Source of the DNA: Parcubacteria group bacterium
GTDB lineage: Bacteria; Patescibacteriota; Minisyncoccia; Phycocordibacterales; Phycocordibacteraceae
Direction: 5' to 3'
Assembly (NCBI GenBank): GCA_028286945.1
Contig: JAQBQR010000028.1
Span: 1 to 51,755, forward strand
DNA: 51,755 bases
Shown: positions 6,059 to 50,233 of the stretch, in pieces
How positions within the stretch are numbered: the first letter of the stretch is position 1
Layout of the letters: each line of letters starts with the position of its first letter
Translations under genes and position numbers: made by a program
The notes under the pieces: model-generated
The model's database searches: none
Told to the model about the DNA's origin: nothing
Seen by the model: the letters and a program-made list of their open reading frames with translations, nothing else

Positions 6059-6778
6059 ATGAATATCATCATCCCGGCCGTCCTTCCAATCTCATCAGAA
6101 GACTTACAGGATAAACTTCTGCGGTTACAGGGGTTTGCCAAAAACGTCCAGGTTGATTTAGTAGATGGAGTATTTGCGTCGCCAGCGTCATGGCCATTTA
6201 CTACTCCGGGGAAAATAGATGAGCAAGGGCAAAATCTGGATGCACTTGAATTTTTGGGTGCGCTTCATATGGAACTTGATTTAATGGTGACAGATCCTGA
6301 AGCCTGCATTGATCCATGGATAACTGCCGGTGCGAATAGGATCACTATTCATGCGGAGAGCACACGAGTACTCCCAAAAATACTTTCAGATATTAAAACT
6401 AAATACGGTCATGATGTGGCATTTATGCCTGGCCTTTTATCCATCGGACTCGCTATTCATGCTTCTACAGAAATAAGTCTTATTGAGCCTTTTTTGAACC
6501 AGGTGGATTACGTACAGTTTATGGGCATTGATACCATTGGACGGCAGGGTGAACCCTTTGATGCCCGTATTTTGCCCAAGCTTCGCGCCTTTAAGAAAAA
6601 ATATCCGAAGATGCCCGTGCAGGTAGATGGAGGGGTATCGCTTGAAACGGCACCTGCGCTTTTATCTGCGGGAGTCTCGAGACTCATTGTGGGTTCTGCG
6701 ATATGGAAGGCGAAAAATGTGGAGACTGCGTATGCAGAGTTTGAAGAATTAACCACAAGGTACGGTATCTATACGTAA
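6059..6778 (+). CDS. rpe: Ribulose-phosphate 3-epimerase
   Basis: QVDLVDGVF, ITIHAE, QFMGI...GRQGEPF, QVDGGV, IVGSAI. Confidence 0.88.
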   Translation: MNIIIPAVLPISSEDLQDKLLRLQGFAKNVQVDLVDGVFASPASWPFTTPGKIDEQGQNLDALEFLGALHMELDLMVTDPEACIDPWITAGANRITIHAESTRVLPKILSDIKTKYGHDVAFMPGLLSIGLAIHASTEISLIEPFLNQVDYVQFMGIDTIGRQGEPFDARILPKLRAFKKKYPKMPVQVDGGVSLETAPALLSAGVSRLIVGSAIWKAKNVETAYAEFEELTTRYGIYT

Positions 6779-42118: not shown

Positions 42119-44032
42119 ATGACTATGAAATCTATGAAAGATACAGTTACAAAAGTACAGGATCGTCCCATTGCAATGGGTATATTCGTCGTGCTTGCAG
42201 TTTTGGGTGTGGGTATTGCCATCGCTTTTGCGACTGGCATGACTTCTCCTACACTGGTTAAGGCGCAGGTTGTTGGTCCTCCATGTTGTACTCCACCACC
42301 GCCACCCCCCCCTCCTCCGCCCCCCCCACCGCCCCCACCACCGCCACCTCCGGTTGTTCCACCGATCCCACCGGTTACTCCTCCTGAACTTCCACCACCA
42401 CCACCAGAGACGCCACCAACTCCTCCAACTACACCTCCACCTCCTTCAGCAACCTGTGACTCACTCACCGCAAGCGCTGCGAGCATTAATCCTGGAGATG
42501 CGGTGACTCTGACCTGGCACACTACGAACGCAACTGCCTTTACGATTGATAATGGTGTTGGTTCCGTAACACCTGTTGATTCCGGAAACGTCGTTGTTCA
42601 TCCAACAGCGGACACCACCTATACCGGTACAGCTGCAGGAGCTTCAAACTCGGCAAGTTGTTCGGCACCGGTTCACATCATCCCAAAGACGACTACTACT
42701 CCTACCTGTAACTTCCTTCACGCAAGCGCGTCGACCATCAATTCTGGTGACGCCGTAACGCTCACGTGGAGCACCTCGAACGCAAGTTCAATCAGCATTG
42801 ATAACGGAGTAGGACCCGTAACGCCTGTTGATTCCGGAAACGTCGTTGTTCACCCAACGTCAAACACCACCTATACCGCAACGGTTCCTGGCGCACCTGC
42901 GAACTCAGCGTGTCAGGTTCCGGTTACGATCACGACGACCCATGTTCCAACCTGTGCTGAAACCAACTCATGCGGAGGAGGTGGAGGAGGGGGCGGTGGT
43001 GGAGGCGGCGGGGGCGGAGGAGGTGGTGGAGGCGGAAGCCCCAACATCGTTCTCAGCTCAAGCTCACGTCTTGCACCCCCACTTGGTAGCGTGTACCTCT
43101 CACAGATCCCGTACACCGGTCTTGACCTCGGTCCCGTTGGAACCGTTCTCTACTGGACAATGCTTGTGATCTGGAGTCTTGCAGCTGCATACCTCGTTCT
43201 CTTTGGATTCATTCCATTCATGCGTCGCCGCGCTGTAGCCTTTGGCTCAAACGTGAGCGAAGCACTTAACAACCAGCCATCACACACGGGGGCACACGCT
43301 ATGCCAGCAGCAAGTGTTGCCGCTTACTCAGCACCAGCTCCTGTCTACACGGCACCTGCGTATGCACCTGTTGCGCCGGCTCACACGCCAAACGTACATG
43401 AAACAGTTCACGCTGCAGCCGTAACGGCCGCAATGCCTGCACTCATGCCGCGTACCGCACCAGCACCTCGTATGGAAATGTCAGGTGACGGCTTCAAGAA
43501 GTTCGCTACATCTGACAGCCTCACCATCGATGACATCGTTAAGGGACTTTCACGTGAGTCAGGTATGCAGTTCACTGCAGAACCTACACACGCAGAAGCA
43601 CCCGTACAGCAGTCTGCACCTGCAGCTCCTGCACACGTTGAGGCACCGGTGTATGAAGCACCAGCTCCTCGTCCAGCTGCACCTGCAGCAAAGGTAGAGG
43701 AAGTACACCCTGAAGTAACAAACTTCATCGCCGCTATCCTTGAAGGTGAACGTGATGTGGTCTTCTCAACGATCCGTCACATTAATCAGGCAGGACACGA
43801 CGTTGAAGAGTTCGTCTCACACGCTATCCTCGCACTTGATGATGCCTACAAGGCCCGCATCGACGGAACACCTGTTCACGAAGATGTGAAGCGTGTAACG
43901 GATCACTGTGCAACGTCATTCCTCGAGCGCCTCGTCACGAGCCTTACAACGGCCGTTGACGGTAGCTACTCAATGGGAGTTACGGGCATCAAGCTTGCGC
44001 TTACGCGCGCACTTGCTGTGGCTCAGGGATAA
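42119..44032 (+). CDS. Putative sortase substrate: poly-Pro, two Ig-like repeats, poly-Gly, internal IPYTG-TM-RRR signal, cytoplasmic Ala/Pro-rich and helical domain
   Basis: Signal segment ending VKA-Q; Pro20 at 42293-42352; Gly21 at 42974-43036; IPYTG at 43106-43120; TM followed by RRR. Confidence 0.75.
   Translation: MTMKSMKDTVTKVQDRPIAMGIFVVLAVLGVGIAIAFATGMTSPTLVKAQVVGPPCCTPPPPPPPPPPPPPPPPPPPPVVPPIPPVTPPELPPPPPETPPTPPTTPPPPSATCDSLTASAASINPGDAVTLTWHTTNATAFTIDNGVGSVTPVDSGNVVVHPTADTTYTGTAAGASNSASCSAPVHIIPKTTTTPTCNFLHASASTINSGDAVTLTWSTSNASSISIDNGVGPVTPVDSGNVVVHPTSNTTYTATVPGAPANSACQVPVTITTTHVPTCAETNSCGGGGGGGGGGGGGGGGGGGGGSPNIVLSSSSRLAPPLGSVYLSQIPYTGLDLGPVGTVLYWTMLVIWSLAAAYLVLFGFIPFMRRRAVAFGSNVSEALNNQPSHTGAHAMPAASVAAYSAPAPVYTAPAYAPVAPAHTPNVHETVHAAAVTAAMPALMPRTAPAPRMEMSGDGFKKFATSDSLTIDDIVKGLSRESGMQFTAEPTHAEAPVQQSAPAAPAHVEAPVYEAPAPRPAAPAAKVEEVHPEVTNFIAAILEGERDVVFSTIRHINQAGHDVEEFVSHAILALDDAYKARIDGTPVHEDVKRVTDHCATSFLERLVTSLTTAVDGSYSMGVTGIKLALTRALAVAQG
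42450..42930 (+). repeat. Tandem intragenic repeat, 252-nt period (two 84-aa Ig-like units)
   Basis: Identical 29-mer CCTGTTGATTCCGGAAACGTCGTTGTTCA at 42572-42600 and 42824-42852. Confidence 0.85.
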
Positions 44033-44092: not shown

Positions 44093-45856
44093 CTATGCAC
44101 GGGTTTTAATTTCTTCCTGCACCTTAGCAGCGAAGTCAGCAACGCTCATGGGCTCGAGCTTACCTGCATCACGGCTTTCAGGTGTTACGGTGCCAGCTTC
44201 CATCTCAGCGTCACCCACTATGAGTAGGTAGGGGATCTTTTGCATCTTTGCTGCACGGATACGCTTACCCAATGATTCATTTCCATCTTCAGCTTCTGCT
44301 CTAATACCTGCGTCAAATAATGTCTTAGCCACCTTGGCAGCGTATTCAGCGTGTTTGCCAGAGACAGGAAGTACCAATGTCTGTACTGGTGCTAACCAGG
44401 TAGGGAATGCTCCAGCAAAGTGTTCAATGAGGAAGCCAATAAATCGCTCATGCGTCCCGAGTGGCGCGCGGTGAATGATTGCTGGCGTTTTCTTCTTACC
44501 GTCGTTGTCCGTATACTCAAGTCCAAACCGCTTTCCCATAAACAAATCAAGCTGATTAGTCGATGCGGTGAACGCACGTCCAATAGAGGAGAAGATTTGG
44601 AAGTCCATCTTCGGGCCATAGAATGCAGCACCTTCATGTACTACCTTATACGGCACGCCGGACTTCTCCATGGCCTCAATGGTCATACGTTCTGCATCAA
44701 GCCAATCCTGCTCGTCCCCGTGGTATTTATCCATCTTGTTAGGGTCGCGCAGCGCAAGCTCCATTTCATAGTTTTCAATACCAAGAGCTTTGTAGTAATA
44801 CTCGTGAAGTTGGATTACGCGAACAAACTCTTCAACAGCATCCTCCTTCTGAATATAGATATGCGCATCATTCATCTGCATGCCGCGTACGCGCATAAGT
44901 CCGAAAAGGCTGCCAGAATCTTCGTAGCGATGGCACCATCCATATTCTGCATAGCGCACAGGGAGATCACGATAACTTTTTGGTCGTGCAGCAAATGTTT
45001 TATGATGGAACGGACAGTTCATCGGCTTGATGTAGTAGTTACCGCCTTCAATTTCAATCGGCGCATACATACTGTCCTTATAGAGAGGCAAGTGGCCAGA
45101 GGTATAGAACAGGTCTTCTTTCGTAATGATAGGTGTGGTTACACGCTGGTACCCCCACATTCGTTCCGTTTCCTTTGCCCAGTTCTCAAGCTCCTCTTTG
45201 ATGATATTTCCCTTAGGTAGCCATATGGGAAGTCCTTTTCCGATAGACTCATCGAAATGGAAGAGATCCATGTGTTCTCCAATGATGCGGTGGTCGCGCT
45301 TCTTTGCTTCCTCAAGCTGTGCCTTATGTGCATCAAGTTCTTCTTTCGTATCAAATGCTAATCCGTAAATGCGGGTGAGCATCGCGTTCTTTTCGTCTCC
45401 GCGCCAGTAGGCGCCAGCAATACGGGAAAGTTCGAAGGAATCTGGTGCTATCTCCTGGGAAGGATTTTCAACGTGGCCTCCACGGCAGAGGTCTGAATAT
45501 GTGCCGGAGGTGTAGAAGGAAACTTTTTGACCGTCCTTAGTAAACTCATCGATAAGTTCCTGCTTATACGGATTATCGACATATTCTGCTTTTGCTTCAT
45601 CAGCGGTCTTTTCGCTGCGGGTAAATTCAGTCCAGGTGGGGAGGATGTCACGCATGGTTTCTTCGATGCGCTTGAAATCTTCCTCGGAAGGTTTTTCATC
45701 AGGGAATTCAAAGTCGAAATAAAAACCGTCATCAATAGCGGGACCAATGGTGCGCTTAGCTGTTGGGTAGAGCTCAAGAACGGCTGCAGCTAAGAGGTGT
45801 GCCAGGGTGTGGCGCTTTTCGGACAGTGAAGTTGAAGTGGGAATATTCGATACCAT
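44093..45856 (-). CDS. thrS: Threonine-tRNA ligase (lacks the N-terminal TGS domain)
   Basis: RHTLAHLLA, DLCRGGH, GAYWRGD, RDHR, KPMNCP, GLMRVR, AFYGPK, HRAPLGTHERFIG. Confidence 0.96.
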   Translation of the reverse strand: MVSNIPTSTSLSEKRHTLAHLLAAAVLELYPTAKRTIGPAIDDGFYFDFEFPDEKPSEEDFKRIEETMRDILPTWTEFTRSEKTADEAKAEYVDNPYKQELIDEFTKDGQKVSFYTSGTYSDLCRGGHVENPSQEIAPDSFELSRIAGAYWRGDEKNAMLTRIYGLAFDTKEELDAHKAQLEEAKKRDHRIIGEHMDLFHFDESIGKGLPIWLPKGNIIKEELENWAKETERMWGYQRVTTPIITKEDLFYTSGHLPLYKDSMYAPIEIEGGNYYIKPMNCPFHHKTFAARPKSYRDLPVRYAEYGWCHRYEDSGSLFGLMRVRGMQMNDAHIYIQKEDAVEEFVRVIQLHEYYYKALGIENYEMELALRDPNKMDKYHGDEQDWLDAERMTIEAMEKSGVPYKVVHEGAAFYGPKMDFQIFSSIGRAFTASTNQLDLFMGKRFGLEYTDNDGKKKTPAIIHRAPLGTHERFIGFLIEHFAGAFPTWLAPVQTLVLPVSGKHAEYAAKVAKTLFDAGIRAEAEDGNESLGKRIRAAKMQKIPYLLIVGDAEMEAGTVTPESRDAGKLEPMSVADFAAKVQEEIKTRA

Positions 45857-45883
45857 ATGACCAAAAGGATAGCATATATAAGG

Positions 45884-46002
45884 AAAAACCGGGTGACGCT
45901 CTTGCGAGAATCACCCGGCTCTTACCGACGTGCAAGCACGTGGCGTCTCCGCGTCAGCCCAGAAAGGTGGGGATGGCACTGACACGAAAGGGGTACGGTG
46001 CT
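45884..46002 (-). ncRNA. Putative small RNA A (paralog of 46909..47044)
   Basis: Follows TTGACA-17-TACAGT; begins AGCACCGTAC; TTCGTGTCAG/CTGACGCGGA stem; CUUG-tetraloop hairpin; ends in a terminator CCGGGTGA...TCACCCGGTTTTT. Confidence 0.6.
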
Positions 46003-46008
46003 GGCAGC

Positions 46009-46037
46009 ACTGTAATTCAAGGAATGGCCAATGTCAA
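46009..46037 (-). promoter_or_regulatory. Sigma70-type promoter of small RNA A
   Basis: TTGACA (46037-46032), 17 nt, TACAGT (46014-46009). Confidence 0.7.
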
Positions 46038-46048
46038 TAGTAGATAAG

Positions 46049-46078
46049 AAAAAGGTCGACCGGGTTACCGGTCGACCA
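46049..46078 (-). terminator. Intrinsic terminator of the orphan gene 46096..46791
   Basis: GGTCGACCGG-TAAC-CCGGTCGACC followed by TTTTT. Confidence 0.8.
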
Positions 46079-46095
46079 GTTTGCGCGGATGCACG

Positions 46096-46791
46096 TCAGA
46101 GCTCGAAGCCCAGAAGCACGGCGACGCATTTTCCACGCCCCAGGAGCGTCAGCCCGGGAACAAAGCATGCCTTGAAAGCAAATTTGAATCCGAGGAAGAA
46201 TTCGCGAGCATAGTGCCCCGTCTTCGGGTACAAGAACCCGAGCCGGCAATAGAGACGTGCCAGCTGCTTCTGGTTCGTCACATAGGTTGACGCATCTTCA
46301 GCAACGAGATCGAGCCAGCGCATCGCCTCTTTTGTCTTGATATGCAGACCTGCGTAGGTCGTCGCAATCAAATAGTAGGTATGCGCCCTGTCGGTGTCCT
46401 TGAGCGCCCGCAGTTCAGATGTGTCGAGGGCCGCTTGGCACATCTTGCTTGCTAAAGTTTTGAGCTTCTCGCGTTCGCTGAAATCGAGTTCCGGCCGTTC
46501 CGCGATGTACGCGAAATAGGTCGTGATCATGTCGACGCGGTCGAAATGGTTCGACTCGAAATAGTCGTCGAAGTCAGCTGACGCGAGCACGTCCTTCTGC
46601 TGCAAGAGTTCGTCGCGCTTGGCGACAAGCTCAAAGCTGCAGCTTGGGCGCATTCGCGCGCTGTATAGCGCTACGCATAGCAGGATGAGATAGCGCTTGG
46701 GATCTTCCTGATATTTGGCGCGCGCATAGGCGACCGCTTTCGGATCACCACGCCATACGGCGTCTTTGTGCAGTTCGGCAGCTGTTGCCAT
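46096..46791 (-). CDS. Orphan alpha-helical (TPR-like) protein
   Basis: GAGGAG SD 7 nt before the ATG; TGA-TATAAT promoter at 46869-46877; helical pattern such as QLARLYCRLGFLY..G; own terminator. Confidence 0.7.
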   Translation of the reverse strand: MATAAELHKDAVWRGDPKAVAYARAKYQEDPKRYLILLCVALYSARMRPSCSFELVAKRDELLQQKDVLASADFDDYFESNHFDRVDMITTYFAYIAERPELDFSEREKLKTLASKMCQAALDTSELRALKDTDRAHTYYLIATTYAGLHIKTKEAMRWLDLVAEDASTYVTNQKQLARLYCRLGFLYPKTGHYAREFFLGFKFAFKACFVPGLTLLGRGKCVAVLLGFEL

Positions 46792-46908
46792 CGTTCGTCT
46801 CCTCGTTTTCTACTAGGGAAGGGAAATCTGTTATACGTATTCGTGTTGAGAAAGGCCGCTCAACGCACATTATATCACGTAAACCCCGTATGTAAAATTT
46901 CGCTAAGT

Positions 46909-47044
46909 AAAAAGAAAATCGGCTGCAGCTGGGGGGAAAAGCTGCAGCCGACCATTTCTCGCTCCCGATACTCAACTAGGGGCGAGTATCCGCGCAGGGT
47001 GGGGGGCCGAGCGGGGCCCTGCGCGAAATCGTATGTACGGTGCT
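46909..47044 (-). ncRNA. Putative small RNA B (paralog of 45884..46002)
   Basis: Follows TTGAAA-17-TACAGT; begins AGCACCGTAC; TTCGCGCAGGG/CCCTGCGCGGA stem; GATACTC/GAGTATC hairpin; terminator TCGGCTGCAGCT/AGCTGCAGCCGA + TTTTCTTTTT. Confidence 0.6.
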
Positions 47045-47050
47045 TCCCGC

Positions 47051-47079
47051 ACTGTATCAGAGTGCCTTGAGGTTTTCAA
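47051..47079 (-). promoter_or_regulatory. Sigma70-type promoter of small RNA B, embedded in the dnaE 3' end
   Basis: TTGAAA (47079-47074), 17 nt, TACAGT (47056-47051), with an extended TG. Confidence 0.6.
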
Positions 47080-50000
47080 TAGCTATGGTAGTTTCGCCAT
47101 TTCGCAGAGAAACGTTGCCTTTAATGAGTACGCAGGTGCCCGGTACAATCAGCGCCATATGTTCTTTGAAAAGTTTCGGGAAGATAACACCCTCAATGGA
47201 ATCGGTCATATCTTCAAACGTAACGAAGGCCATACGGTCGCCGCCCTTGGTGAGATGAATCTTTGTTTCCATGATGAGCACCGGAAGGATGATGGTGCGT
47301 CCTGGCAATGGATCTTCTTTCGTGCGCTTTAGATCTGTACCGGCTTTTGTGCGGTATGCCTCGTGTGCTTCGAGCGGGTGTCCCGAAACATAAATACCAA
47401 GGAGTTCTTTTTCCCAGGCAAGTTTTTCTGAAGCAGGTGTTTCTGCAAGTGGTGCAGGAAGAGTGAGTGTGGGTGCCAAAGCAAATGCGCCGAAGAGAGA
47501 GTCTTGTGGTTTCTCTGCGGTGGCGTCGCGATGGAAGGCAAGCAGCGTTTCAATATGCGTAATCAAATGGCCGCGACCTCCCGATCCTTCTGCAAAACGA
47601 TCAAGCGCACCACCTTTAATAAGTGACTCGAGTGATTTGCGGTTTAGAGACTTATTCGCAACGCGCGCAAGAAAATCTGCGAGCGAGGTGTACGGCCCTT
47701 TAGCATTTCGTTCATCAAGGATGGCGTGCGAAATTCCTTCACCAAAGTTTTTAATAGAAGTGAGACCAAAACGAATGGCATCTTCGCCGTTAGGACCGCC
47801 ACCCTTCACCACAGTGAAGTCCGTACCACTTTCGTTCACATCAGGAGGAAGCACTGGAATTCCAAGACGCGTGCTTTCTGCGACGAATATAGAAATTGAT
47901 TCAGTGTCACCAGCGTCTGCCGTAAGTACCGCCGCCATATACTCAACCGTATAATTAGCCTTTAGATAGGCCGTTTGATAGGCAACTTTTCCGTAGCAGG
48001 CGGCGTGTGCTTTTCCGAATCCGTACGCTGCGAATGGTTCAATAAGTTTCCAAAGTCGTTCGCCTTTAGCAGGAGAGAGTTTTCCATATTCAGCAAAGCC
48101 CTTTAGAAGCTTCTCTTTCTGCGCGGCCATCTCTGCAGGAATCTTCTTACCCATAGCTTTACGGAGTGTGTCAGCCTCAAGCCAGGAATATCCTCCGAGC
48201 GTAATGGAGGTGAGAAGCACGTCGTCCTGGTACACGAGGAGACCATATGACGCATCCAGATAATCCTTCATGCGCGGATCAAGGTAGGTAACTTTTTCAG
48301 CATGCATTTTTCGATCAATGTATTCAGGAATTGATTCCATCGGACCCGGACGGTACAACGCCACCATGGCGTTGATGTCGTGAATGGTCGTGGGTTTAAG
48401 TTCCTTGAGATAGCGCGTCATACCTGAACCGTTGAGCTGGAAGAGTCCTTCTGTGTCGCCGCGAGCAAGCATCTCGAATGTCTTCGCGTCATCAAGCGGA
48501 ATATTTTCAATATCAATATCAATGCCGCGCGTGCGGCGAACACATTCCACCGCGTCTGAAATAATCGCCAAGTTCTTAATACCGAGGAAGTCGAATTTCA
48601 AAAGACCTGCTTCTTCCACCGCGTGCATGTCGAACTGGGTGATGAGCTTTCCCGTCTTAGGATCAACCTGGAGCGGCGTCCAATCCGTGAGGGGAGTCGG
48701 CGCAATAACCACACCGGCGGCGTGCACACCCGTCTGACGCGCGCAGCCCTCAATCTGTTTTGCCAAATCAATGATCTCACGCGTGTCGTCATCTTCTTCA
48801 TACAGCTGTTTGAGTTCAGGCTCTATTCCAATAGCTCGCGTAATGGTCATAGGAAATCCCTGCGCTCCAAGAGGAATGAGCTTCGCAATGCGGTCACCCG
48901 TGCCGTATGAGTGACCCAGTGCGCGCGCCACGTCACGCACGGCAGCGCGCGCCATCATGGTGCCGAACGTTCCAATCTGCGCCACATTATTTGCGCCATA
49001 CTTTTCCTTTGCATACGCAATCATTTCGTCACGGCGGTTATCAGCAAAGTCCATATCAATATCCGGCGCCTTTGGGCGCTCAGGGTTAAGGAAGCGCTCG
49101 AAGGGAAGTTTGTACGAAATAGGGTCCACCGTGGTGATACCGGTAAGGTAGGAGACGATGGAGCCCGCGGCGGAGCCGCGGGTCGTAGACAGAATACCCA
49201 CTTTCTTTGCGTAATGAAGAAGATCAGACACAGCAAGGAAGTACGGTGCGAATCCTTTTCCGTTGATGACCCCGAGTTCGTATTCAATGCGTTCAAGCAC
49301 TTCGGAAGTTTCCTCCATACCTCGACGCACCAAACCTGCGTACGTATCTTCACGCAACATTTCCTCATGCGTCTTTCCGTCTACCGTATCCACCTTCGGG
49401 AAGTTCCAAGAACCAAGCTCGAGCGTCACGTCACAGCGATCCGCAATTTCACCAGATGCATCCACCGCCTCAGGTACATCCTCAAACCATTCGCGCATCT
49501 GATTCTCATTCACGAATGAGAAATCTTCGTCTTCACTACCGCCTCCGCCTCCAAGACCAATGCGTCGCATCACTTCCGTGGCTTCACGGTCTTCAGGCTT
49601 CAGGTAGTAGACATCGTGCTGTGCCAGAAGGGGAACGCCCGATGTTTTTGAAAGCGCCTTCAACTCCTGCATACGAGCTTCGTGCCCGGCCACGCGCGGA
49701 TGGTGAGAAATTTCCAAATATAAATGATCAGTACCAAAAATACTTTGGTACTCAGCGAGCGCTGCAGCTGCAGCATTTTTATCTCCCGCAGCCAGCAAGC
49801 GCGCAGGGTCGCCGGCGAAGGAAGGAAGAATAGCAATGAGTCCGCCTTTGAGTTCACGAAGAATATCACGGTCAATGCGCGGCTTTTCAAAAAAACCTTC
49901 TACCTGCGCTGCCGAAACTAATTTCAGCAAATTCTTATATCCTTCATTATTTTCTGCGAGCAGCACGATGCGGCTTCGCTTCGCGTCTTGGACCGGGTCC

Positions 50001-50233
50001 TTATCAAAGCGTGTTCGTGGCGCCATATATATGTCGACGCCAATGATCGGCTTTATATCTTTCTTATGTGCCGTCTTATAGAACTCAATGGCACCGTGGA
50101 GGTTTCCCGTGTCCGTAAGTGCAATGGCGTCCATCCCTGCGTCCTTAGCAGCTCCCACGAGTGCCGGCACCTTAGGAAGCGCCTGAAGGAAGCTGTAGTG
50201 GCTATGTGTGTGGAGATGAATGAAACGACCCAT
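47057..50233 (-). CDS. dnaE: DNA polymerase III alpha subunit
   Basis: HLHTHSHYS PHP domain, RGSAAGS, FERFLNPER..PDID.DF, HAAGVVI, KFDFLG, YGFGKAHA, C-terminal OB fold. Confidence 0.97.
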   Translation of the reverse strand: MGRFIHLHTHSHYSFLQALPKVPALVGAAKDAGMDAIALTDTGNLHGAIEFYKTAHKKDIKPIIGVDIYMAPRTRFDKDPVQDAKRSRIVLLAENNEGYKNLLKLVSAAQVEGFFEKPRIDRDILRELKGGLIAILPSFAGDPARLLAAGDKNAAAAALAEYQSIFGTDHLYLEISHHPRVAGHEARMQELKALSKTSGVPLLAQHDVYYLKPEDREATEVMRRIGLGGGGGSEDEDFSFVNENQMREWFEDVPEAVDASGEIADRCDVTLELGSWNFPKVDTVDGKTHEEMLREDTYAGLVRRGMEETSEVLERIEYELGVINGKGFAPYFLAVSDLLHYAKKVGILSTTRGSAAGSIVSYLTGITTVDPISYKLPFERFLNPERPKAPDIDMDFADNRRDEMIAYAKEKYGANNVAQIGTFGTMMARAAVRDVARALGHSYGTGDRIAKLIPLGAQGFPMTITRAIGIEPELKQLYEEDDDTREIIDLAKQIEGCARQTGVHAAGVVIAPTPLTDWTPLQVDPKTGKLITQFDMHAVEEAGLLKFDFLGIKNLAIISDAVECVRRTRGIDIDIENIPLDDAKTFEMLARGDTEGLFQLNGSGMTRYLKELKPTTIHDINAMVALYRPGPMESIPEYIDRKMHAEKVTYLDPRMKDYLDASYGLLVYQDDVLLTSITLGGYSWLEADTLRKAMGKKIPAEMAAQKEKLLKGFAEYGKLSPAKGERLWKLIEPFAAYGFGKAHAACYGKVAYQTAYLKANYTVEYMAAVLTADAGDTESISIFVAESTRLGIPVLPPDVNESGTDFTVVKGGGPNGEDAIRFGLTSIKNFGEGISHAILDERNAKGPYTSLADFLARVANKSLNRKSLESLIKGGALDRFAEGSGGRGHLITHIETLLAFHRDATAEKPQDSLFGAFALAPTLTLPAPLAETPASEKLAWEKELLGIYVSGHPLEAHEAYRTKAGTDLKRTKEDPLPGRTIILPVLIMETKIHLTKGGDRMAFVTFEDMTDSIEGVIFPKLFKEHMALIVPGTCVLIKGNVSLRNGETTIAIENLKAL

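Follow-up and report, generated by a model that had tools for sequence, protein, structure and literature searches.

Sibling base-pairing small RNAs (sRNAs) with a conserved 5′ end, for example OmrA/OmrB and PrrF1/PrrF2, are neighbouring paralogues, each with its own promoter and intrinsic terminator, and they combine identical 5′ ends with diverged middles. The same features were observed in two predicted minus-strand units, named A and B, between dnaE (DNA polymerase III alpha) and thrS (threonyl-tRNA synthetase, ThrRS) of a Parcubacteria group bacterium (assembly GCA_028286945.1). The stretch analysed, hereafter the window, is its 51,755-nucleotide (nt) contig JAQBQR010000028.1. The unit pair looks like a set of candidate sRNA genes, lineage-specific and narrowly spread. 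Units A and B differ from the described siblings by the lack of any sequence or Rfam relation to them, by a gene for a protein of 231 amino acids (aa) that intervenes between them, and by their 86%-complete genome, in which no Hfq or ProQ gene was found.

sRNAs of the DapZ/MicL type derive from a 3′ untranslated region (UTR) and have their promoter within the upstream coding region. Unit A resembles them in that its −35 box lies in the last dnaE codons and its terminator is common with dnaE. Unit B differs, as it follows a gene that already has its own terminator. The 6C RNA of Actinobacteria resembles unit A in having loops with runs of six C, of which unit A has two, but it comes from another phylum. 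The account of 6C RNA in PMC6486639 includes a chaperone-independent mode through C-rich loops. As no Hfq or ProQ gene was found here, pairing of this kind is the nearest known logic for the units. T-box leaders (RF00230) and threonine (Thr) leader-peptide attenuators are similar in position, with the same gap, the same orientation and a terminator just 5′ of thrS. The units differ from them in having no specifier, no T-box motif, no leader open reading frame (ORF) and no convincing antiterminator, and in the thrS gene, which keeps its own promoter. Our literature search returned almost nothing on small regulatory RNAs in Patescibacteria, and nothing joining leaderless mRNAs and Shine-Dalgarno sequences in this group.

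Anatomy and paralogy of units A and B

Along the minus strand the order of features is dnaE, unit A, the promoter of the 231-aa ORF, the ORF itself, its terminator, unit B, the thrS −10 box and thrS. The unit A promoter (47051..47079, TTGAAA-17-TACAGT, with TG ahead of the −10 box) begins inside the end of dnaE (47057..50233). Its predicted RNA of 136 nt (46909..47044), delimited by the fold and the 5′ motif, would double as 3′ UTR and terminator of dnaE. In the fold, a 5′ tail (about 47044–47028) is followed by stems P1 (about 47027–46989) and P2 (46990–46967), a terminator hairpin with a CCCCCC loop (46952–46918) and a U-tract (46917–46909). Unit B has its promoter at 46009..46037 (TTGACA-17-TACAGT) and a predicted RNA of 119 nt (45884..46002), defined in the same way, with a 5′ tail (46002–45990), P1 (45989–45947), P2 (45944–45924) and a terminator hairpin with U-tract (45923–45884).

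The first-pass annotation of this DNA had proposed two minus-strand units of the same architecture on both sides of ORF 46096..46791, about 120 and 135 nt long, without a common ORF and with TTGA(C/A)A-17-TACAGT promoters. Both units were found in these places, no ORF was common to them, and the promoter scan listed both promoters among the five promoter-like sites of 45600–47400, against 1.5 ± 1.1 in shuffled sequences. The identical 5′ end at a fixed distance from the −10 box was also recovered, as AGCACCGTAC is exact at 47044..47035 in unit A and at 46002..45993 in unit B and begins at the seventh base past the −10 hexamer in both.

The fold of unit A had an energy of −58.3 kcal/mol (z −4.84) and that of unit B −53.0 kcal/mol (z −4.33), and in neither case was any of 200 shuffles as good. 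Both showed a first stem on the base UUCG(C/U)G...CGCGGA with a C-rich interior and a common CCCCACC, then a second hairpin, then a long GC-rich hairpin with a U-run. The conserved stem, C-rich interior and second hairpin of the first-pass annotation were thus present in both folds, and its description of a fixed scaffold with variable loops was fair. The intrinsic terminators that it had placed at the ends of the units were likewise seen in the folds as hairpin and U-tract. The terminator scan of the region flagged only the terminator of the 231-aa ORF (46077..46054) and missed the terminal hairpins of the units, because a 9-nt loop or an internal loop falls outside its rules. The promoter-to-terminator features of an sRNA gene, namely own promoter, intrinsic terminator and no ORF, were found by consensus and fold predictions only.

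The same annotation had argued from U-G wobbles that the minus strand is the transcribed one. The z-scores agreed, with −4.8 and −4.3 for units A and B on the minus strand against −3.1 and −2.5 on the plus strand. However, the plus strand of unit A had the lower raw energy (−62.1 kcal/mol), so the G-U argument is weak, and the orientation is drawn mainly from the promoter and the U-tract.

Local alignment of unit A with unit B gave z 5.4, and none of 300 shuffles reached the score. A 22-nt direct repeat (86%) between the units extends from the −10 box across the 5′ end. The promoter spacers themselves are unlike, with 5/17 identical bases in an ungapped comparison counted by eye, yet the units retain both hexamers at a distance of 17 nt, the opening 10 bases of the transcript and the base of the stem. 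The sequence thus confirms units A and B as real paralogues with a predicted promoter, structured body and terminator. One 15-nt stretch of unit B, on the 3′ side of P1 (45951–45965), recurs with 87% identity at 46146–46160 in the 3′ end of the 231-aa ORF, which is probably chance.

At gathering scores Rfam found only a tRNA in the whole window and no family at the units, and a permissive scan of the unit region gave only a weak match to 6C RNA (RF01066). Unit A scored 29.9 bits (E 0.15) against a gathering score of 47, and a 36-nt insertion interrupts the match; unit B had no match to the model at E up to 10, and neither did the unit of a sister genome described below at E up to 1. Membership in the 6C family was rejected on these results. 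The 6C layout of two adjacent hairpins, each with a loop of about six C, was not seen in the units. Unit A carries CCCCCC in the interior of P1 and in the terminator loop with an extra hairpin between them, unit B has one CCCC run, and the sister unit has one CCCCCC run.

A copy in a sister species and signs of selection

Genomes of the genus are denoted by G-codes, and the dnaE–thrS or thrS stretches taken from them by L-codes. G000 is the genome that holds the window (716 kb, 42 contigs); the window is its contig C9, and one DNA sequencing run of the same study, which may be the source sample, covers the window stretch without differences. A search for RNA runs that contain the locus found none, and two RNA runs of that study gave 0 contigs, which speaks neither for nor against expression. 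In a genome-wide search G000 held only the two unit copies. The exact 10-mer AGCACCGTAC occurs at five further sites in the genome, each of them within a long open frame and lacking the remainder of a unit; three of these are antisense to an ORF but lie deep within it. The units were also considered as a repeat family or miniature inverted-repeat transposable element (MITE), as they are two copies only 1042 bp apart. A dispersed element of this kind was rejected, since the genome has only these two copies, no others were found elsewhere, and the units lack both terminal inverted repeats and target duplications; we consider it extremely unlikely.

A pattern built from the conserved parts matched 4/222 genus genomes, namely G000 (two copies), G055 (one copy) and two others. 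The two extra matches were read as chance because they sit inside long ORFs and 5 matches arose with a backward control. The three copies were also used to build a covariance model, called R1, that covers the 5′ tail and P1; it scored its training copies at 53–56 bits in 151 genus genomes, and the next best match reached 28 bits. The six best extra R1 matches overlap open frames of 126–768 codons and had no recognisable promoter or terminator. Among 150 further genomes from the order, none matched R1 with E up to 0.01. A scan with promoter plus pattern gave 0 matches in metagenome contigs, and among the contigs of species-representative genomes only that of G055 matched. The search for further copies that the first-pass annotation had suggested therefore yielded one syntenic copy in G055 and none in other genomes of the genus or order.

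In G055 the end of dnaE contains the same embedded promoter in the same place (z 13.6 between G055 and unit A). The layout there is dnaE, unit, thrS promoter and thrS, without a 231-aa ORF, and the unit is a predicted 140-nt RNA with three hairpins (z −8.99, 0/200 shuffles as good). The seven basal pairs of P1 form in all three copies (21/21 cells paired), and 4/7 pairs are invariant. The unit B segment from the terminator through the thrS promoter aligned best with the same segment of G055, with a z of 6.7 that comes mostly from the thrS promoter. The simplest history suggested by these sequences is a single ancestral unit, of which the part from the promoter to P2 was duplicated when the ORF cassette entered. 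MAFFT alignments of the full units yielded no usable consensus structure.

The divergence between G000 and G055 was gauged on the last 750 nt of dnaE, where third-codon positions were only 40–56% identical, so unconstrained sequence should be nearly randomised. The promoter hexamers, their spacing and the −10 box, the AGCA start, the 7-bp base of P1 and the three hairpins with the terminator nevertheless persisted. Because these features were kept while synonymous dnaE sites are near saturation, their retention argues for selection on the units and gives good indirect evidence for function. It also bears on the possibility that the units are neutral leftovers of a decaying duplicated intergenic segment. 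The narrow spread (2/222 genus genomes, 0/150 other genomes of the order, 0 metagenome contigs) would suit such leftovers, as would the gap itself, which is a hot spot of gene turnover. Nevertheless, all three copies retain the hexamers at their fixed distance, the start, the base of the stem and folds of great stability (z down to −9.0) at near-saturated neutral divergence, and between units A and B these were kept next to an unlike spacer. Neutral decay is therefore improbable in our judgement.

The reading that we prefer, with a confidence somewhat short of even, is that the units are independent sibling small non-coding RNA genes, which probably pair with other RNAs through the 5′ tail or the C-rich loops. 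Each unit would be transcribed from its own sigma-70-type promoter, starting at AGCACCGUAC and ending at its intrinsic terminator, to give RNAs of about 136 and 119 nt, in which a single-stranded 5′ tail is followed by two hairpins and then by that of the terminator. Unit A would at the same time be the dnaE 3′ UTR and terminator, with its promoter inside the dnaE coding end, in the layout of a 3′-UTR-derived sRNA. Both RNAs may act in trans on mRNAs by chaperone-free base pairing via the conserved 5′ tail, the exposed C-rich loops, or both. As far as sequence can establish them, the anatomy, the paralogy, one syntenic orthologue and the retention across saturated neutral divergence stand behind this reading, and both downstream genes have promoters of their own (11/12 consensus positions for the 231-aa ORF). 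If it is true, the pair would be a concrete first sRNA test case in a 0.7-Mb genome in which neither Hfq nor ProQ was found.

Several observations weigh against sibling base-pairing sRNAs. The units are predictions from sequence and folding, and the set consists of three copies in two sister species, from which both the search pattern and the covariance model were derived. Local alignment of the G055 unit with units A and B was not significant (z 1.0 and 0.3; 43 and 98 of 300 shuffles reached the score), so its kinship is drawn from synteny, the AGCA start, the seven basal P1 pairs and the architecture. Its 5′ tail differs at 4/10 bases, and the C-rich runs occupy different loops in the three copies. 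Covariation among the three sequences amounted to one pair that changes on both sides, a score reached by 144/500 shuffles. When crudely defined 5′ regions at 6251 candidate starts were searched for targets, the outcome was noise, the best hits being the units' own antisense, and pairing of the 5′ tails with the 5′ UTR of the 231-aa ORF or with the thrS start was no better than in shuffles. Of the modes proposed in the first-pass annotation, neither the guide-like nor the anti-Shine-Dalgarno one gained direct support. The latter idea was dropped when no 16S gene was found in the G000 or G055 assemblies. The usual anti-Shine-Dalgarno tail of 16S RNA is pyrimidine-rich; the 16S 3′ end of another genus genome, G122 (L124, 1501–1515, minus strand), reads unlike this familiar tail.

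The empty target prediction is also consistent with structured RNAs that are selected for something other than pairing, as termination or insulation modules or as a protein-binding decoy or scaffold. Such modules would close dnaE and the ORF and shield thrS, and the promoter and the 5′ tail would be retained because they secure abundance or processing rather than as a seed. In agreement with this, the hairpins persist although their sequence, apart from the base of the stem, is drifting freely, the terminator of unit A is the first that follows dnaE, and many sister loci have only a plain terminator in the gap. However, a plain terminator needs no conserved promoter, fixed start or two extra hairpins, the second full copy follows a gene that already has its own terminator, and no candidate partner protein co-occurs with the units. 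Selection for structure without pairing is thus a less probable explanation, though one that we take seriously.

Transcription of thrS and the contents of the dnaE–thrS gap

Unit B lies directly upstream of thrS, a position that the first-pass annotation had missed and that raises a cis-regulatory rival. In this alternative the units would be cis-acting leaders: unit B and the G055 unit would sense ThrRS, tRNA-Thr or threonine and adjust the read-through into thrS accordingly, and unit A would be a duplicate placed ahead of the 231-aa ORF. The unit would then be a third device in the slot of T-box and Thr leaders. The idea is a natural one for unit B because sister genomes hold thrS leaders in the same slot. 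About 30 nt separate the end of the unit B terminator from thrS, and the arrangement in G055 is the same. In unit A, once the 3′ arm of the terminator is masked, its 5′ arm can pair with the 5′ tail.

The thrS gene (44093..45856, minus strand) has no Shine-Dalgarno sequence, and a TG-extended −10 box (TGCTATCCT, 45866..45874) lies 9 nt 5′ of its ATG, in the manner of a leaderless-type promoter. A TGnTAnnnT box 5–11 nt before an in-frame ATG was present in 25/30 thrS loci of the genus (L037–L066), so the thrS mRNA looks leaderless. The five loci without the box are exactly the three T-box-like and two Thr-leader loci of that set; as the 30 loci come from related genomes and are not independent, this distribution is a pattern and not a test. 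Both unit-bearing loci keep the TG-extended −10 box, unlike all five loci with a real leader, and with a promoter of its own thrS does not need the units for its transcription.

T-box-like leaders were found in the gap in L046 (G012), L053 (G015), L063 (G004) and L089 (G084). They have a short first stem, whose loop contains an ACC triplet, and carry a GGTGGAACCGCG motif as well as a terminator. Against the T-box model of Rfam, L089 scored 33.4 bits and L046 29.6 bits, both far below the gathering score of 93, and L053 and L063 had no match at E up to 1. In L039 (G073), L040/L094 (G058) and L076 (G102) the gap is occupied by leader peptides with a run of Thr, followed by terminators. The predicted peptides are MAFVTTTTTTP in G058 and G102 and MILTTTTTAR in G073, with five or six Thr codons. 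Their ORFs begin 6–7 nt past a TATACT box and are followed by a hairpin and a strong terminator just 5′ of thrS. By sequence, the arrangement is that of classical leader-peptide attenuators; here it precedes a gene for an aminoacyl-tRNA synthetase, and the leader peptide is itself leaderless. When the Thr run of these sister leaders was masked, the antiterminator did not become the best fold.

Compared with these leaders, the units lacked the expected signals. The T-box model had no match in 45700–47300 at E up to 10, no ATG-started Thr-run ORF was present upstream of thrS in the stretches L037 and L054, unlike in L039 and L040, and alignment with the Thr leaders of sister genomes showed no significant similarity (z at most 0.6). 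With the 3′ terminator arm masked, alternative folds were far weaker than the terminator folds (−42.6 against −58.3, −34.0 against −53.6 and −51.6 against −75.2 kcal/mol), and a strong 11/12 promoter lies between unit A and the 231-aa ORF. A thrS-leader role is disfavoured by these sequence comparisons, and we regard cis-acting leaders as unlikely. A further possibility is that the unit is a third thrS-linked RNA device that reports threonine charging, either by binding tRNA-Thr or ThrRS or by acting in trans on translation genes, and that it was duplicated to bring a second gene under the same signal; this is improbable to about the same degree as neutral decay.

Depending on the genome, the dnaE–thrS gap of this genus is empty or contains small ORFs that have Shine-Dalgarno sequences, homologues of the 231-aa protein (in G134 and G074), leaders of the T-box-like kind or Thr-run leader peptides. 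Judged from sequence features, one genus would thus use three alternatives for thrS, namely a leaderless promoter, a T-box-like leader and a Thr leader peptide, which replace one another in one small gap. This genus-wide variety of thrS control may teach more than the units themselves. Two other elements of the gap were seen. In L073 (G067) the gap just past the dnaE stop is filled by a long, near-perfect inverted repeat, whose arms of about 30 nt lie on either side of some 90 nt and which may represent another kind of structured or mobile element. In L070, L071, L080, L087, L091, L092, L096, L038 and others, a small ORF of low conservation lies 5′ of thrS; it has a clear ribosome-binding site of the GGAGG type and is driven by a TGTGATATA-type promoter situated at the stop of dnaE.

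The enclosed 231-aa protein and the flanking genes

The ORF enclosed by the units (46096..46791, minus strand) has its own promoter at 46896..46869 (TTTACA-16-TATAAT, TG-extended), GAGGAG before the ATG and its own intrinsic terminator, all of which the first-pass annotation had read correctly. That annotation had also called the protein an orphan, which did not hold. A word-index search with the protein found only itself, but a profile of the protein and two genus homologues found at least 174 representative clusters at E up to 0.001, mostly of 200–240 aa. Seven of these clusters were looked up and were unnamed or annotated as hypothetical protein, and the 231-aa protein had no Pfam or PADLOC family match, so we describe it as a member of an uncharacterised family. 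Its structure was predicted with confidence (pLDDT 87.6) and is all-helical with 14 helices. The best Foldseek matches in the PDB were TPR-like or helical-repeat proteins, none of them significant (best E 0.22).

The units had further been proposed as antitoxin or cofactor RNAs of this protein, which they flank in one genome, G000. The co-occurrence check failed in both directions. In G134 and G074 the homologues occupy the same gap, neither of their flanks carries a unit, and just a plain terminator precedes thrS. Only one of the three full-length homologue loci in the gap (G000, G134, G074) has units, in a count that leaves out two partial matches (G017 and G015). Conversely, G055 has a unit and no homologue. 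Because of these two results a link between protein and units is not supported. In addition, the structure and family searches of the TPR-like helical repeat gave no toxin or nucleic-acid-binding match, and the 5′ tails have no complementarity to the 5′ UTR of the protein. A function of the units as antitoxins or cofactors is therefore very improbable.

The two genes that border the gap showed different kinships. The C-terminus of DnaE is 93% identical to that of G055 and 60% to that of G051, and the N-terminus of ThrRS is 84% identical to that of G051 and 57–59% to that of G055. This discordance suggests a recombination break within the dnaE–thrS gap. On the other side of thrS, a 637-aa ORF on the plus strand (42119–44032) converges on the end of the gene. 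Its product contains runs of 20 prolines and 23 glycines as well as two Thr/Ser-rich repeats that resemble each other, and is probably a surface or secreted protein.

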